From the IMG/VR virus record IMGVR_UViG_3300015195_000003, positions 1-49,980 of that record: 49,980 nt of DNA. One strand, given 5' to 3'. Below are positions 4,139-36,764 of this stretch, in pieces. A model generated the notes under the pieces. That model did no database searches. It was not told the origin of the DNA and was given only the letters and a program-made list of their open reading frames with translations. The translations under genes and the position numbers were made by a program. Every line of letters starts with the position of its first letter. The first letter of the stretch is position 1. This DNA is from a virus.

Positions 4139-4252
4139 ATTTTTCGATAAATAATCATTTAAAAAATCTCCCTATTTCGAAAATCCCATAAAGGAAAAAC
4201 CAAAGCGTGAAAACCATACCTATAAAAAAACCATAAAAGAAAAACTCGAATT

Positions 4253-4450
4253 TTACTTTCCAGCTTTTGTCTTCGGTTCTTCGATAGTCTTGTTTTGCTC
4301 GACCCACAATAAAAACTCCCGAATTGCGTTATTGCCGACAAGATTTTTGTCCGACTCCTTCGGGAAGCTATTATATTTTAGTGCAAACTCTCGCAATTGT
4401 GTTATTGAGAATTTTTTCTTGTAATTTTTGATCTCTTCAAAATTGCTCAT
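4253..4450 (-). CDS. Hypothetical protein, first minus-strand gene after the divergent control region
   Basis: 65-aa ORF with an ATG start, downstream of the promoter at 4479-4507. Confidence 0.55.
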   Translation of the reverse strand: MSNFEEIKNYKKKFSITQLREFALKYNSFPKESDKNLVGNNAIREFLLWVEQNKTIEEPKTKAGK

Positions 4451-4478
4451 ACGCTTTACAGTTAAGTATATACTGTTA

Positions 4479-4507
4479 ATTATACATACTTAGACATAGT
4501 TTGTCAA
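4479..4507 (-). promoter_or_regulatory. GTCTAA-box promoter: TTGACA-aactat-GTCTAA-gtatg-TATAAT
   Basis: Perfect hexamers with a 17-nt spacer, nearly identical to the promoter at 1505-1533. Here the ATG (4450) lies 28 nt downstream. Confidence 0.6.
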
Positions 4508-4523
4508 CCCGTGTTTTGAGTCC

Positions 4524-4551
4524 TTGACATAATCCTGTGGTCTGCTATAAA
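4524..4551 (+). promoter_or_regulatory. Candidate plus-strand promoter TTGACA-N16-TATAAA
   Basis: Read directly. It is back to back with the minus-strand promoter and points toward the replication block. Confidence 0.4.
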
Positions 4552-4572
4552 TAGTAACACAAGACAAACAGC

Positions 4573-4602
4573 TTGTAACTCCGAGGCCAAGAGGAGTATA
4601 AT
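4573..4602 (+). promoter_or_regulatory. Candidate plus-strand promoter TTGTAA-N18-TATAAT
   Basis: Read directly, about 95 nt upstream of the ATG at 4699. Confidence 0.35.
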
Positions 4603-4698
4603 CAATCAGAAGCATATCCAATCCGTTTGGGTTAGTGCCGAGTGAAAACTTGGCCAAAGTTCTGATTGACTTCGGCACTTACCTAAGCGGATTTTTTT

Positions 4699-31900: not shown

Positions 31901-32050
31901 AGGTCTGAGAATATCTTGCAGAGTTTTCCAGCGCTTGTCAATATCCGTTAACGGAAAAATCTAAAACGAAAAAAGGGAGTGTGCGAACAAACTTTTTCAA
32001 AAGTGAAAAAGTGACTCTTCTCTCTTCCTTCTATTTATATTCCCTCTAGA

Positions 32051-32099
32051 CGTACTTTGTTCGAACAATGTTCGTACCAACTTCGAACATGATACGAAC
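32051..32099. repeat. Cluster of nested inverted repeats built on TTCGAAC/GTTCGTA
   Basis: 12-bp palindrome ttgttcgaacaa (32057-32068). atgttcg (32068-74) pairs with cgaacat (32084-90), and gttcgta (32070-76) pairs with tacgaac (32093-99). Another cgaaca lies at 31984. Confidence 0.7.
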
Positions 32100-32202
32100 T
32101 TAGGCACAAAAACAGTCAAAAAGCATTAAAAAAAGTCTATCAAACTATATCAAAAAAAAGTTGAGAAACAAGAAAAAAGTTGTTTAAAAAAATAATAAAA
32201 AG

Positions 32203-33006: not shown

Positions 33007-34602
33007 TTATTCATTTGCTCTTGTGGAAATTTCACTCTCGATTTGACTCTTCAATGACAAGATATCCTCAGCAAACGAAAACGCTTCGGTGTTAACCATG
33101 CGCTGTGGTCTCGCTTTGTCGGTTGGTTTGTCTCCTGGCATTCCTGGTGGCGGTGGTGGGAAGCCAATCTTTCGACGTTGAATATCCTTTTCGTCTTGAT
33201 CCGCAAGCTCCATCGGCGCTGGAAGATCCATTGTTTGTCTGACGTATTTATCAAGCTCCTCGTCTGGGACAATGACGCCTGTTGAAACTAACCATTGCAT
33301 TGCTTGTGCCAATTGAGCAAAGTCGACTTGACCAATACCACCCACCTCAAGCGTTGGGTATTCTGATTCTTGTGTGCCAGTGAAATTCAAATCAATTAAC
33401 TCTCGAATAGCCAGGTTAAGTTGCTCTTGAATAAGCTTGGCCATGTATTTCAGACTGACTAAAAACAACTCTGATTGATCGTCTGATAAATTCTTTGTCC
33501 CAGCACTTGAAGCTCCCATATCCAAAAAGTGCGCTAAGAACGCTTTGAGTATTTGGCGGTCGTGGTGAAGCACCATATCTTTGACGTTTTTCAGCTCCTT
33601 TGCTTTGGTGTCGATGTATTCAACTGAAAAGCCAATAGGTAAATCAATGTAGGACTGCTCATTAACACGCATGTTTTTGGCAATAACTTTCGCTCGGGCT
33701 TTGTCTTTTGGATTAGCTTGTGGCGGAACCTTGATAATTGGCACTCCCATTCCTTGACGTTCTGACGCTATGGCGTCAATCTTGTATAACGTGTCTTTAT
33801 AAAACCACGGCTTGTAGGCGGCTCTTAACAGCGAAATGCCCTCATAATTGGCTCCTTCCATTTCATTGACAAACATCATTAATTTCCACTGAGGAATTTG
33901 TACATTGCCCCCGGTCGGTAGGACTTGGGTAATACCAGGCGTAACACCATCTTCAAGCGTATATCTCCAAACCGTTTGCGGTAAACGAGGTGCAAACTTC
34001 TTCCACCCGATTTTGCCATCGACTCTTTGCCTCCAGACTTTCTCGAAAATCGAATTCCCATAATCACAGAATAACAGAATCTGGTTGAGCGTTTGCGTCC
34101 ATGAAAAGTTCGGGTTATTAAATAACTCCTCTTGAATGAATGTTTTCTTTTCAGGATTGTCCATCTTCTCTTCACTCTTTCCAGGCTTCACGTACCACGA
34201 CGCGGCGAGTAATGGTTTCTTAACGGCTTGCAAACCCAAACGGACGGTGGCATCTCCCTTTCGCATTTGATCGTAAATTCGAACACGCTCTCGACCGGCT
34301 AAATCAGGGTTGTAATCAGCCTCGGATAAAATACCGCCAATGATAATTGTTCCCGATCCTCCAAGTTCGAGTTCAAGAACTGAGGTTGGTTCAGAATCTC
34401 CAGCATCGTTTGCGTCACCACTTGCGATTTGTCGAGGGACACCAGCATTGAGAGGATCAGCGGCAAATGGTGCTTTGGGATCGTCACTCACCTGAGACTG
34501 CATTGGATCAGAAACGTCGGGCTTAACCTCGGTTGTGGGCGTTGGCCATGTCCCTGGAGCATTTGCATTATTTGAGGTTTGTTTAGGTGCTGTTTTATCC
34601 AT
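33007..34602 (-). CDS. Portal protein (Mu gp29/DUF935-like)
   Basis: 531 aa. RIYDQMRKGDATVRLGLQAVKKPLLAASWYVKPG fits the DUF935 pattern. Located between TerL and the MuF-like gene. Confidence 0.8.
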   Translation of the reverse strand: MDKTAPKQTSNNANAPGTWPTPTTEVKPDVSDPMQSQVSDDPKAPFAADPLNAGVPRQIASGDANDAGDSEPTSVLELELGGSGTIIIGGILSEADYNPDLAGRERVRIYDQMRKGDATVRLGLQAVKKPLLAASWYVKPGKSEEKMDNPEKKTFIQEELFNNPNFSWTQTLNQILLFCDYGNSIFEKVWRQRVDGKIGWKKFAPRLPQTVWRYTLEDGVTPGITQVLPTGGNVQIPQWKLMMFVNEMEGANYEGISLLRAAYKPWFYKDTLYKIDAIASERQGMGVPIIKVPPQANPKDKARAKVIAKNMRVNEQSYIDLPIGFSVEYIDTKAKELKNVKDMVLHHDRQILKAFLAHFLDMGASSAGTKNLSDDQSELFLVSLKYMAKLIQEQLNLAIRELIDLNFTGTQESEYPTLEVGGIGQVDFAQLAQAMQWLVSTGVIVPDEELDKYVRQTMDLPAPMELADQDEKDIQRRKIGFPPPPPGMPGDKPTDKARPQRMVNTEAFSFAEDILSLKSQIESEISTRANE

Positions 34603-34614
34603 AGGTCTGTTTAA

Positions 34615-34643
34615 ATACTAAAGCAAATACTTGACTTTGGCAA
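34615..34643 (-). promoter_or_regulatory. Portal promoter TTGCCA-N17-TAGTAT
   Basis: Read from the reverse complement. The ATG (34602) lies 12 nt after the -10. Its spacer overlaps the -35 of the divergent tRNA promoter. Confidence 0.45.
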
Positions 34644-34661
34644 TTAGTACGGTGGTATACT
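34631..34661 (+). promoter_or_regulatory. Plus-strand promoter TTGACT-N19-(TGg)TATACT
   Basis: Read directly. The extended -10 TGgTATACT lies at 34653-34661, about 100 nt upstream of the tRNA-like gene. Confidence 0.45.
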
Positions 34662-34762
34662 AAACATACCCTGTTGGTCTCGGTTACTCTTCAGAGATCT
34701 TTACAACGCCGGACAAGTAAGAGTTGGAAAGCTAAGTTCAGGGTGCCCGCAAGGGCTACATT

Positions 34763-34845
34763 GGAGAGGCAATCCGATCGGCGACGGAACTCGTTTTGAA
34801 AACGGTCGAGCGAAAGCCTTAGAGGTTCGACTCCTCTCCTCTCCG
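34763..34845 (+). tRNA. Class II tRNA-like gene, best read as tRNA-Ser(UGA); no encoded CCA
   Basis: Perfect 7-bp acceptor stem (GGAGAGG/CCTCTCC). Perfect T arm AGAGG-TTCGACT-CCTCT. 3-bp D stem TCC/GGA. Anticodon loop TTTGAAA (TGA at 34797-34799) on a 4-bp stem with one mismatch. 14-nt variable arm with a GAAA loop. Discriminator G. Confidence 0.55.
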
Positions 34846-35015
34846 CAATTCTCGGGGTATTACCAAATGGTCAATTGTTAAAGTAGGTGTTTGCGCCGTG
34901 ACGCCCTTCTTAAGAGCTTTTTTCTAGACTAGCTTGCTCGCAAGGGGTCGTGGGTTTTTTCTCGGCACAAGCAAAGAAACAACTTTGAGCAAGATATCGC
35001 GAGTTTTTTTACTGA

Positions 35016-36764
35016 TTAGAAGACTCTATCCGTTAATCCAGCCGTATACGCATCATTTACTACCATCTCCTCGCCTCCTACAGTCGATATAACATCAGGT
35101 GTTGGTGCATCCTGACTAAATGCTTGATATGCAAGATTTGGCCAATTGTAGACCGTTCCGTAATGACAATAATCAGGTGCGTGATCGCTCTCTTTTACCG
35201 GATCATCTGACCATGTACCGTCGGGCTTTCGCTTCTTTGAATAACCAAGAAAATCGTTTCGACTGTTGGGTGTTTTCTCCATGACGAACTTACCTCGTCT
35301 TTCATCAATGAAGTTTCGAACATGTGGGATGCCGTTCTCCTTTAGATACAGTTTAGAAACGTCTTTCATCTCACAATTGACGGTTTGACAGCTAATCCCG
35401 TGAAGCATTTCGTGAGTGATCTTTGCAGGCTCGGGAATAGGACAACCGTATTTTCTTCTGTCTGCAATTTCAGTCAACCCGTGATAGTCAGGCACCCAAA
35501 CACTAATATGTGTAAAGAATTCAGCGTAATTAACTTCATAACCACCTTCGGGAATCCATGAAAGCAATTGTTCCCGCGTCACCTCTTTAAGATGCGGGTC
35601 AACTAAATCCATTGCTTGAAGCTTCTGGATGATTTGAATAATGATTGCCTGTGTTGTCGACTCGGTGATATAACACTCGTTAAAAACAGTCCACTCCATT
35701 TTCTCGATACGAACGTCGACAAATCCAATAGCGTCAGGGTGTGTTTTCGCGTATCCGAAATCCTCCCATATTTGAATTGAGCGGTCTTTTGGTATCACAA
35801 ATCCTGGGTGATTGTTTTCAATCTCGTCAAAATGTGGGTAAATAAGACCGCTGGAATCAGGCTTTTGGCACATCCATTGAGCCAAGAACGTTTCACGGTC
35901 AAGCGTTTTCACACGCGTTATTAAATCGGACCACTTGAAATAGCCTGAGAACTTGGTGAGGTCAGGCGGTAACAAATCACGACCACCGAACTTTGCGTCA
36001 AAGACATCATAGATTTGCTGTTGCATTAAAGGATCAGTCGGCCACGGCTCCATGACTTCCCAAACACACCATGCAAAAACCTCGGCAATCTTATCGTCAA
36101 TTAACCGCTGCATTGGCCCATGGGCGTACTTTCTTGTCGATCCCAAAATCGTTGTTGCACGAATTTTATCAGTCGAATTAGGCATTGATAAAGCCTCCTG
36201 CAAGATTGGCCAAGCAATCAATTCCACCTCGTCAGCTTTTAGCTTTTGTGGATGCGGTGAGTTAACCCCAGCAATGGTAGCAATTAGCACTTGAAGCCAT
36301 GATTTGTTAAGAAATGTCGTTCGACCCAGTGTTACTTTTCCTTTAACGGATGCGGCTAGTTCGTCGTCGTCTTCAAGAAAGCGGCGGATGTATCCAAAAC
36401 ATCTCAATGCTTGTTTTTCAATTGCTCCGAAGTTTGCTCCTTCACAATCATCATCTGCCAATGCGTCAAGAATGGCGAGTATGGCAAAGTCAATTGTTTT
36501 TCCTCCGTTACGATTAGCGAGCGCCAAAATAACGTCAAACTTTTCAAAGAAAGCGGCGGCGAGAAACTCAAAGGGTGCGACGTGATTACTGCAGATCTGA
36601 GTCGTCGGGATCGAAGTGTGAAATCTCTTCTCGATGTATCGATGGAGTGCCTTCTTCTTCTGCGGATACGTCCACCGTGGGTGTTTCTTCAAGAGCTTCA
36701 AGAAGTTCTGTCGGGTCGGCCGCTTCAATGTCGGGTTGTTGTCCAATGTTGGAAATTTGCTCAT
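35016..36764 (-). CDS. terL: Terminase large subunit
   Basis: 582 aa. An N-terminal ATPase-like region (LALANRNGGKTIDFAILAIL...) is followed by a nuclease-sized C-terminal half. Located immediately upstream of the portal region. Confidence 0.85.
   Translation of the reverse strand: MSKFPTLDNNPTLKRPTRQNFLKLLKKHPRWTYPQKKKALHRYIEKRFHTSIPTTQICSNHVAPFEFLAAAFFEKFDVILALANRNGGKTIDFAILAILDALADDDCEGANFGAIEKQALRCFGYIRRFLEDDDELAASVKGKVTLGRTTFLNKSWLQVLIATIAGVNSPHPQKLKADEVELIAWPILQEALSMPNSTDKIRATTILGSTRKYAHGPMQRLIDDKIAEVFAWCVWEVMEPWPTDPLMQQQIYDVFDAKFGGRDLLPPDLTKFSGYFKWSDLITRVKTLDRETFLAQWMCQKPDSSGLIYPHFDEIENNHPGFVIPKDRSIQIWEDFGYAKTHPDAIGFVDVRIEKMEWTVFNECYITESTTQAIIIQIIQKLQAMDLVDPHLKEVTREQLLSWIPEGGYEVNYAEFFTHISVWVPDYHGLTEIADRRKYGCPIPEPAKITHEMLHGISCQTVNCEMKDVSKLYLKENGIPHVRNFIDERRGKFVMEKTPNSRNDFLGYSKKRKPDGTWSDDPVKESDHAPDYCHYGTVYNWPNLAYQAFSQDAPTPDVISTVGGEEMVVNDAYTAGLTDRVF

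Follow-up and report, generated by a model that had tools for sequence, protein, structure and literature searches.

Genes for tRNA-Ser(UGA) are carried by T4-like cyanophages (S-CREM1, S-PM2, S-H9-2), by Erwinia phage IT22 and by Streptomyces phages (Blueeyedbeauty, Moab and others). These genes are the closest known counterparts of a tRNA-Ser(UGA) gene that lies, behind a small structured RNA, in a 413-bp island (34603–35015) between the portal gene and the putative large terminase gene of the virus contig IMGVR_UViG_3300015195_000003. This complete contig of 49,980 bp, with a G + C content of 41%, is the whole stretch of DNA analysed here and is referred to below as the window. The likeness to the described phage genes is strongest in the 5' half, which is near-identical (GGAGRGG-CAA-TCCGATYGGCGACGGAA), and includes the anticodon loop, the T loop, G73, and a frequent mismatch at positions 27-43, whereas the variable arm of the window gene has 14 nucleotides (nt) compared with 16–19 nt in the relatives. 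The genomic setting differs as well, since at least S-CREM1 and IT22, with genomes of ~175 kb, have their copies next to further tRNA genes, whereas the window tRNA stands alone behind the small RNA in a phage of 50 kb.

Two other kinds of described system invite comparison. In phage T4, stable small RNAs of unknown function (species 1 and 2, RNA C and D) are co-transcribed with the tRNA cluster. By analogy, the window may likewise yield a structured small RNA from a phage tRNA transcript, released by tRNA-processing enzymes, but unlike in T4 its small RNA comes first, occurs without a tRNA in relatives, and is encoded on the opposite strand between the terminase and portal genes. The predicted RNA also has the layout of a riboswitch or structured leader, in which stem P1 closes off a hairpin and possible pseudoknot, with conserved junction nucleotides and then a terminator, and in three relatives (L012, L005, and L008; the handles denote contigs introduced below) a terminator hairpin directly follows P1. 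Unlike riboswitch leaders, however, the window RNA has no protein-coding gene downstream, no alternative pairing or ligand is conserved across its members, and it was not matched by any riboswitch or ribozyme model of Rfam. For phage tRNAs in general, a codon-supply model has been discussed for late genes (for example, PMC12482277 and PMC13015707).

We propose that the island is a small-RNA locus transcribed opposite to the packaging and head genes, and assign a probability of roughly 0.6 to the whole explanation, i.e., a small RNA together with a co-transcribed tRNA-Ser. Judged by sequence comparison, the tRNA is an ordinary member of a known lineage, and what is new lies in the small RNA: a covariation-supported structured RNA family that has not been described before, combined with a fixed promoter, a slot for exchangeable tRNAs and an overlap with the candidate head-operon promoter. 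Apart from this new RNA family, nothing at the locus overturns expectations. If the RNA is functional, the locus would be a compact example of how a virulent-type phage of an uncultured host exerts control, or counters defence, at the level of RNA.

Relatives of the locus were obtained by a protein search of public assemblies with the terminase, which returned homologues of 92% to ~50% identity, and their contigs were compared with the window. Those that bear on the small RNA are the following (terminase identity; size of the terminase-portal gap; content).
L003: 92%; 284 bp; promoter and RNA as in the window, without a tRNA
L004: 77%; 311 bp; same RNA, followed by a bona fide tRNA-Gly(UCC) (RF00005, 45.1 bits)
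L012: 74%; 314 bp; same RNA, followed by a strong terminator
L008, L009/L010, L016: 58–64%; ~350–620 bp; RNA with similar motifs (CUUAAC, UGGAAA)

The elements of the small RNA in the window are these.
34668–34744, plus strand: structured core of the small RNA, 77 nt (covariance model and covariation)
34668–34673 with 34739–34744, plus strand: stem P1, ACCCTG with CAGGGT (read from the sequence, covariation)
34676–34681 with 34694–34699, plus strand: stem P2, GGTCTC with GAGATC (read from the sequence, covariation)
34686–34691 with 34719–34724, plus strand: possible loop-to-3' pseudoknot, ACTCTT with AAGAGT (read from the sequence)
34745–34756, plus strand: small hairpin GCCC-GCAA-GGGC directly 3' of P1, without a U-run after it in the window

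An earlier examination of the letters by themselves (the sequence-only reading) had already pointed out P1, the pseudoknot pairing and the small hairpin, all of which were recovered at the positions it gave, but had overlooked P2. It had regarded the segment as a tRNA leader of ~95 nt. The segment is indeed structured and situated behind the plus-strand promoter, but it is not a mere leader, since it is present in relatives that have no tRNA. Because MAFFT alignments were structurally inconsistent and RNAalifold gave no structure, a covariance model was seeded from the window sequence alone and iterated once. The single-sequence model (R1) was too weak to pick up L004, whereas the iterated model (R2) scored 94.7 bits for the window, 92.2 for L003, 83.4 for L012, and 38.1 for L004 (E 5e-8). 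In the resulting alignment (A12), 93% of the cells of the whole structure are paired, compared with 26–54% when the partners are slid, nine pairs are altered on both sides, and 0 of 500 shuffles match the observed values. The predicted stems P1 and P2 covary, with 96% of their cells paired and 8 of their 12 pairs altered on both sides. Several unpaired motifs are kept too (CUUUAC/CUUAAC, CGGAC, and GAGUUGGAAAGCUAAG). The small hairpin has counterparts in L003 (GCC-GAAA-GGC), L008 (GCCCGCAAGGGC, then UUUU), and L016 (CCCC-UUCG-GGGG, then GUUUAU), and strong hairpin plus U6 terminators take its position in L012 and L005.

Three features argue for the plus strand as the coding strand: P1 and P2 contain G-U pairs, the tRNAs are oriented that way, and the RNA is followed by hairpin and U-run terminators in L012, L005, and L008. 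The small RNA is considered separate from the tRNA because it is kept without a tRNA in L003 and L012 and with a tRNA-Gly in L004. A search of Rfam 15 returned nothing on 34668–34756 at E ≤ 10, and only noise on the islands of L012 and L008. Taken at the level of sequence, the small RNA is thus a gene in its own right, outside any described family. L008, L009, and L016 are possible distant members by synteny, promoter, and motifs only.

The tRNA behind this RNA behaves as a cassette. When the islands of the window and L003 are aligned, high identity on both sides is interrupted by one clean indel of 96 nt (34757–34852), which consists of TACATT, the tRNA, and CAATTC and lies between the small hairpin and a CTCGGGG...CAATTG block. 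In L004, the tRNA-Gly(UCC) occupies the slot of the tRNA-Ser. The clean indel and the exchanged tRNA suggest that promoter and RNA form a fixed module, behind which one tRNA can be exchanged for another as cargo.

The components of the tRNA gene, all on the plus strand, are as follows.
34763–34845, plus strand: tRNA-Ser(UGA) gene (ARAGORN -ps, blastn, family alignment)
34763–34769 with 34838–34844, plus strand: acceptor stem, GGAGAGG with CCTCTCC, 7 bp, perfect
34770–34772, plus strand: CAA connector, 3 nt, no U8
34773–34776 with 34785–34788, plus strand: D stem, UCCG with CGGA, 4 bp, with an 8-nt loop AUCGGCGA that includes GG
34790–34794 with 34802–34806, plus strand: anticodon stem, four pairs (one G-U) and a C-U mismatch at 27-43
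34797–34799, plus strand: anticodon TGA in the loop UUUGAAA, with U33 and A37
34807–34820, plus strand: variable arm, 14 nt, 3-bp stem in the family register plus a C-G pair with a bulge
34821–34825 with 34833–34837, plus strand: T arm, AGAGG-TTCGACT-CCTCT, perfect
34845, plus strand: discriminator G73, no encoded CCA

At 95% thresholds (-ps), ARAGORN called a tRNA-Ser(tga) at 34763–34846 as its sole call in the window, against a background of 0.05 calls per shuffle in 40 dinucleotide shuffles. A blastn search of 50,697 phage records gave 30 matches covering 34762–34846 (76–81% identity, E 5e-13 to 2e-6), which belong to Streptomyces phages (n = 19), Synechococcus phages and cyanophages (n = 10) and Erwinia phage IT22, most of them annotated as tRNA-Ser. 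Together with the perfect acceptor and T arms, these results bear out the proposal of the sequence-only reading that the plus strand carries a tRNA-Ser(UGA)-like gene. The window sequence was aligned with six annotated phage tRNA-Ser(UGA) genes (A14), all of which ARAGORN calls tRNA-Ser(tga) by default. The alignment has 54 invariant columns, and 96.9% of its cloverleaf cells are paired compared with 50–66% with slid partners. All 22 pairs maintained in the family are intact in the window. Two private double changes, UA to CG at columns 30-42 in the anticodon stem and GC to AU at columns 66-78 in the T stem, retain pairing, and the other private stem changes (CG to UG, GU to GC) break no pair. 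U33, A37, G18G19, G73, the T loop GTTCGACTC and the UGA anticodon are intact, and the CAA connector, D arm, anticodon loop (UUGAAAA in the alignment) and G73 are the same as in the six relatives. This comparison indicates that the tRNA truly belongs to the phage tRNA-Ser(UGA) lineage and has remained under selection for its fold.

The imperfections on which the sequence-only reading had remarked (C8, the anticodon stem, a weak variable arm, no CCA) do exist, but C8, the 27-43 mismatch and the missing CCA are unlikely to be signs of decay because they are shared across the lineage. The CAA connector is invariant in the six annotated relatives, the mismatch occurs in five of the seven family members, and an encoded CCA is absent from four of the six relatives, with G73 in all of them. 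The D stem is UCCG/CGGA across the family, with a compensatory CA..TG in IT22. In a permissive Rfam search of 521 nt, only the tRNA-Sec model (RF01852) matched, with 34.1 bits against a gathering score of 47 (E 4.8e-5). A tRNA-Sec was rejected, as the anticodon is UGA instead of UCA, acceptor and T arms measure 7/5 and the threshold is not reached; the match is due to the long variable arm only. Low Rfam scores appear to be a trait of the lineage, since two bona fide members also remain below the gathering score of this model (45.5 and 44.7 bits). A transfer-messenger RNA was dismissed as well, none being found by ARAGORN -m even at 80% thresholds. A practical consequence is that tRNA-Ser genes with this 3-nt connector between acceptor and D stem lie at or under the Rfam thresholds, that the short-armed window member falls also under those of default ARAGORN, and that such genes can be missed or taken for pseudogenes.

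The anticodon agrees with codon usage in 69 greedily chosen open reading frames (ORFs) of the window. UCA is the top serine codon (294 of 850, 34.6%), with a share of 41.6% in the structural block at 11–37 kb compared with 25.7% elsewhere, and GGA, which is read by the tRNA-Gly(UCC) found in relatives, is the top glycine codon of the window (41.6%). The locus resembles the codon-supply model in that its anticodon fits the most used serine codon of the phage, enriched in structural genes; that model rests on a contrast between phage and host, whereas the match reported here comes from phage genes alone.

Two candidate promoters overlap at the portal end of the island.
34631–34661, plus strand: candidate promoter of the small-RNA/tRNA unit, TTGACT (34631–34636), a 19-nt spacer that includes TGG, and TATACT (34656–34661), read from the sequence
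34615–34643, minus strand: candidate promoter of the portal gene and head operon, TTGCCA-17-TAGTAT, called by a promoter scan

The sequence-only reading had described these promoters as interlocked, and both stand: their sequences are present, the scan called the minus-strand one, and both recur in relatives. The scan made no call of the plus-strand promoter because it permits spacers of 16–18 nt only. Among the 14 island sequences compared (window and 13 relatives), 10 have an extended -10 element (TGn and TAnnnT). The architecture of the window promoter (TTGACT-19-TGnTATACT) recurs at the junction in L008, L009, and L010 and, near-identically, in L003; a version with a 17-nt spacer and TGn plus TAYGMT is found in L004, L005, L012, L013, and L014, and L016 has kept TTGACT without the TGn motif. 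The minus-strand promoter (TTGCCA/TTTACA-17-TAnnAT) likewise occurs in 10 of the 14 sequences (window and nine relatives). Both interlocked candidate promoters are therefore kept in most relatives. As the -35 box of each sits inside the spacer of the other, binding of RNA polymerase at the two should be mutually exclusive. The role of the minus-strand promoter would be to drive the portal gene and head operon. If it is real, the portal mRNA would start only ~5–7 nt before the ATG (34602–34620, minus strand), within the start context ACCTATGG, and would thus be nearly leaderless.

Lineage membership, the preserved fold, the covarying stems, the conserved promoters, the clean indel of the cassette and the agreement with codon usage are seen in the sequences themselves, whereas transcription, processing, serine charging and any function of the small RNA are inferred and can be pictured as follows. 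Transcription would begin at ~34667 from the sigma-70-type extended -10 promoter (34631–34661) that lies back to back with the portal promoter. The first product would be the 77-nt RNA, its 5' end paired to its 3' end by P1 and enclosing the P2 hairpin, with several invariant motifs left unpaired; a segment further downstream may pair with the P2 loop. In relatives, the small RNA would end at its own terminator. The position of the 96-nt cassette directly behind the small RNA suggests that RNA and tRNA-Ser are co-transcribed in the window. RNase P would cut at the 5' end of the tRNA, which would also free the 3' end of the small RNA, and trimming of the tRNA 3' end and addition of CCA would be left to host enzymes. 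UCA, above all in the structural genes, would then be decoded by the tRNA. For the small RNA itself, our preferred guess is that it is stable and either acts in trans or binds a protein, and that its promoter in addition competes with that of the portal gene.

Several observations weigh against this explanation. The tRNA finders and Rfam, which had been named as a check on the tRNA, divided: besides the call at 95% thresholds and the 34.1-bit match reported above, ARAGORN at default thresholds found no tRNA in the whole window, probably owing to the short variable arm, and Rfam at gathering thresholds gave no match. A long variable arm is the chief recognition element for seryl-tRNA synthetase, and that of the window is the shortest among the seven family members, so serine charging might be poor. 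The closest relative, L003, has no tRNA, which implies that the tRNA is dispensable. The 19-nt spacer of the plus-strand promoter is long for sigma-70. As to the small RNA, the firm definition of the family comprises four sequences (window, L003, L012, and L004), in which the pseudoknot helix is nearly invariant and so neither supported nor refuted; R2 gave 11.7 bits for L008 and 8.9 for L016 and did not match L009. Folding energies are no better than those of shuffles (z = -0.27, -0.29, and -0.04), and because the single-sequence value (z = -0.27) does not surpass the shuffles, the case for the small RNA rests on the covariation in the four sequences.

Some of these points would be accounted for if the window tRNA were a decaying or inactive copy of a phage tRNA-Ser gene, gained by recombination and perhaps transcribed, though uncharged and unused. 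The rejection of the window copy by default ARAGORN and at the Rfam thresholds when six relatives pass ARAGORN, the shortest variable arm of the family with its C-C clash in the family register, and the lack of a tRNA in L003 all fit such a history. We nevertheless consider it unlikely, because 22 of 22 intact family pairs and two private double changes that restore pairing are unexpected under neutral decay; the private single changes give G-U or G-C, U33, UGA, A37, the T loop, G18G19 and G73 are intact, and the codon match is strong. Rather less likely in our estimation is a tRNA-shaped element that does not decode and serves as an RNase P processing handle or as a decoy or replacement against host nucleases that target tRNAs. 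Its position 6 nt past the small-RNA hairpin, which has no U-run in the window, would suit a handle, non-canonical tRNA-like elements are present in the islands of L009, L015, and L016, and the 5' half of the lineage is unusually conserved among phages of unrelated hosts. Yet L003 has the small RNA and hairpin without the tRNA, so that a handle is not required, and the anticodon loop is canonical and fits the preferred codon.

The conservation of the island might also reflect control at the DNA level, with divergent promoters and an operator, and with transcription that serves only to insulate the terminase transcript or to interfere with it. The overlap of the promoters, whose occupancy should be mutually exclusive, the convergence of the plus-strand unit into the terminase gene behind weak terminators, a conserved palindrome downstream and the unexceptional folding energy agree with this possibility. 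Against it speak compensatory changes in P1 and P2 that keep RNA pairs, some of them G-U and thus A-C if read from the opposite strand, invariant motifs 40–70 nt past the start, too distant for promoter elements, and the strong terminators of the RNA's own in L012 and L005, and we regard it as improbable. Temperate phages often integrate into tRNA genes, and the tRNA sequence could on this precedent belong to an attachment site (attP) in which the phage has copied a portion of a host tRNA gene. The window contains a complete tRNA with both halves, however, integration between terminase and portal would split the late operon, and the nearest matches are phage and not bacterial tRNA genes. As moreover 185,579 GTDB species genomes yielded no prophage relative and no integrase was seen among the ten window proteins scanned (primase, helicase, ERF, nuclease, and Fic families were returned), we give this possibility hardly any weight.

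A bolder version of the small-RNA explanation, which we put forward as a speculation with little chance of being right, treats the 77-nt RNA as a new sensing or self-processing class in a locus that would time the packaging and head genes by an RNA switch and exchange cassettes. The fold, with P1, P2, the pseudoknot and an invariant core of CUUAAC, CGGAC, and UGGAAAGCUAAG, would decide between a stop at the hairpin or terminator and read-through, first into the tRNA cargo and then antisense into the terminase gene. The timing switch would follow from exclusion of the portal promoter by the small-RNA promoter, and the cargo (tRNAs for Ser and Gly or of opal-suppressor type, and odd tRNA-like RNAs) would be swapped between phages as cassettes.

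The remainder of the island lies downstream of the tRNA and contains four further sets of elements.
34851–34887, plus strand: conserved block CTCGGGGTATTACCAAATGGTCAATTGTTAAAGTAGG, nearly identical in L003
34864–34877, plus strand: imperfect copy CAAATGGTCAATTG of the 14-bp palindrome CAATTG-RT-CAATTG, single copy in the window
34903–34923 and 34936–34961, plus strand: two weak hairpin and T-run elements, possible terminators (a scan called 34936–34955 with its T-run)
34978–35013, no strand assigned: conserved block AACAACTTTGAGCAAGATATCGCGAGTTTTTTT, adjoining the terminase stop codon (35016–35018)

The palindrome is perfect in L016 (CAATTGATCAATTG), kept in L003 and present as variants in L008 and L009. 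With GATC inside it, the palindrome probably serves for protein binding in the manner of an operator. The hairpin and T-run at 34903–34923 that the sequence-only reading had suggested as a terminator is present, but the number of such sites (two found, 1.0 expected by chance) does not exceed chance, and they are poorly conserved in comparison with L003. Block AACAACTTTGAGCAAGATATCGCGAGTTTTTTT is almost invariant between the window and L003, though the stretch just before it varies.

In the other relatives, the junction between terminase and portal varies widely (terminase identity unless noted otherwise; gap; content).
L013/L014: 71%; at least 550 bp; tRNA-Gly(UCC), joined in L013 by a second tRNA whose anticodon is UCA
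L005, L006, L015, L146, L147: 52–73%; ~200–700 bp; other small elements
L007: 59%; 1439 bp; inserted ORF of 221 amino acids (L007:6209–6874, plus strand), no Pfam match on record
L011: 57%; 35 bp; essentially gapless
L002: portal 35%; 8 bp; essentially gapless

The inserted ORF of L007 adds to the evidence for an insertion hot spot at the junction. From these comparisons, small antisense RNA genes seem to have a general slot there, and for this phage group the junction would represent a conserved site of such genes with interchangeable tRNA cargo. The second tRNA of L013 (4661–4732, minus strand) is canonical, of opal-suppressor type, and scores 49.2 bits with RF00005; ARAGORN labels it "SeC". 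It could point to TGA read-through or recoding in the L013 phage. The window itself has long ORFs in the standard code.

TRNA-shaped elements with a 7-bp acceptor stem and the T loop GGTTCGATTCC occur on the minus strand in L009 (5599–5671), L016 (4605–4675), and L015 (4426–4499). In each of the three, the T stem has a single bulged base, which sits at a shared position, and the anticodon loop is without U33 (ACCAUCC, CCACCGG, and UGAGCAG, respectively). RF00005 did not match them and default ARAGORN missed all three. They may form a family of non-canonical tRNA-like elements. The acceptor stem of the L009 element resembles that of the L013 tRNA-Gly. L005 (5523–6205), L008 (5054–5676), and L006 (5576–5874), read on the minus strand, have in common a second conserved non-coding block, which the window does not contain, with ATGTGGYCAAA..TTGCGRCCGGTGAKGATGTCCGGTG and GTAAGCKCACGCTTGG...GTGTGATAGGAGT...AAMTAAC as examples. 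It has no Rfam match and may be another structured RNA. L146 and L147 (52–58%) have yet a different conserved sequence downstream of the terminase, TTACTTTTGTTTTCCAT..GGAAATAGA when read on the minus strand, which ends in a bidirectional terminator.

The genes that flank the island are encoded on the minus strand, as is nearly every gene of the window past 7.6 kb.
33007–34602, minus strand: Mu-type portal gene (PF06074, E 3e-44)
35016–36764, minus strand: gene of 582 amino acids, putative large terminase by position and by the neighbourhoods of its homologues

A Pfam scan gave no match for the putative terminase. A MuF-like gene and then a Mu protease-like gene follow 3' of the portal gene. 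The island contains no ORF of coding quality. A protein-coding reading of 34674–34799 (41 amino acids) was dropped, as this ORF continues into the tRNA cassette that L003 lacks. The island is the longest gap in the packaging and head block, yet it is not the only long one, as the sequence-only reading had it: the 302 bp between the MuF-like and protease-like genes (31901–32202) are equally free of ORFs.

Scans with short exact words extended the comparison further. The small RNA was present at none of the 21 loci found with a promoter 18-mer, a 21-mer of the tRNA had no match, and the 16-mer GAGTTGGAAAGCTAAG was found at 9 loci in viral contigs and at least 120 in metagenome contigs, where nhmmer and the covariance model gave chance matches. 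The best locus of the 16-mer scan (L022, 20 bits) was rejected because it lies inside an ORF of 192 amino acids. A target search by duplex energy for the small RNA returned only meaningless full-length duplexes. A candidate paralogue of the small RNA in the window (4243–4325, minus strand, 12–14 bits) was rejected as lying within a small ORF. This uninterrupted ORF of 65 amino acids (4253–4450, minus strand; ATGAGCAATTTTGAAGAG...GGAAAGTAA) is situated inside a 560-bp region (4139–4698) that had appeared to be non-coding.

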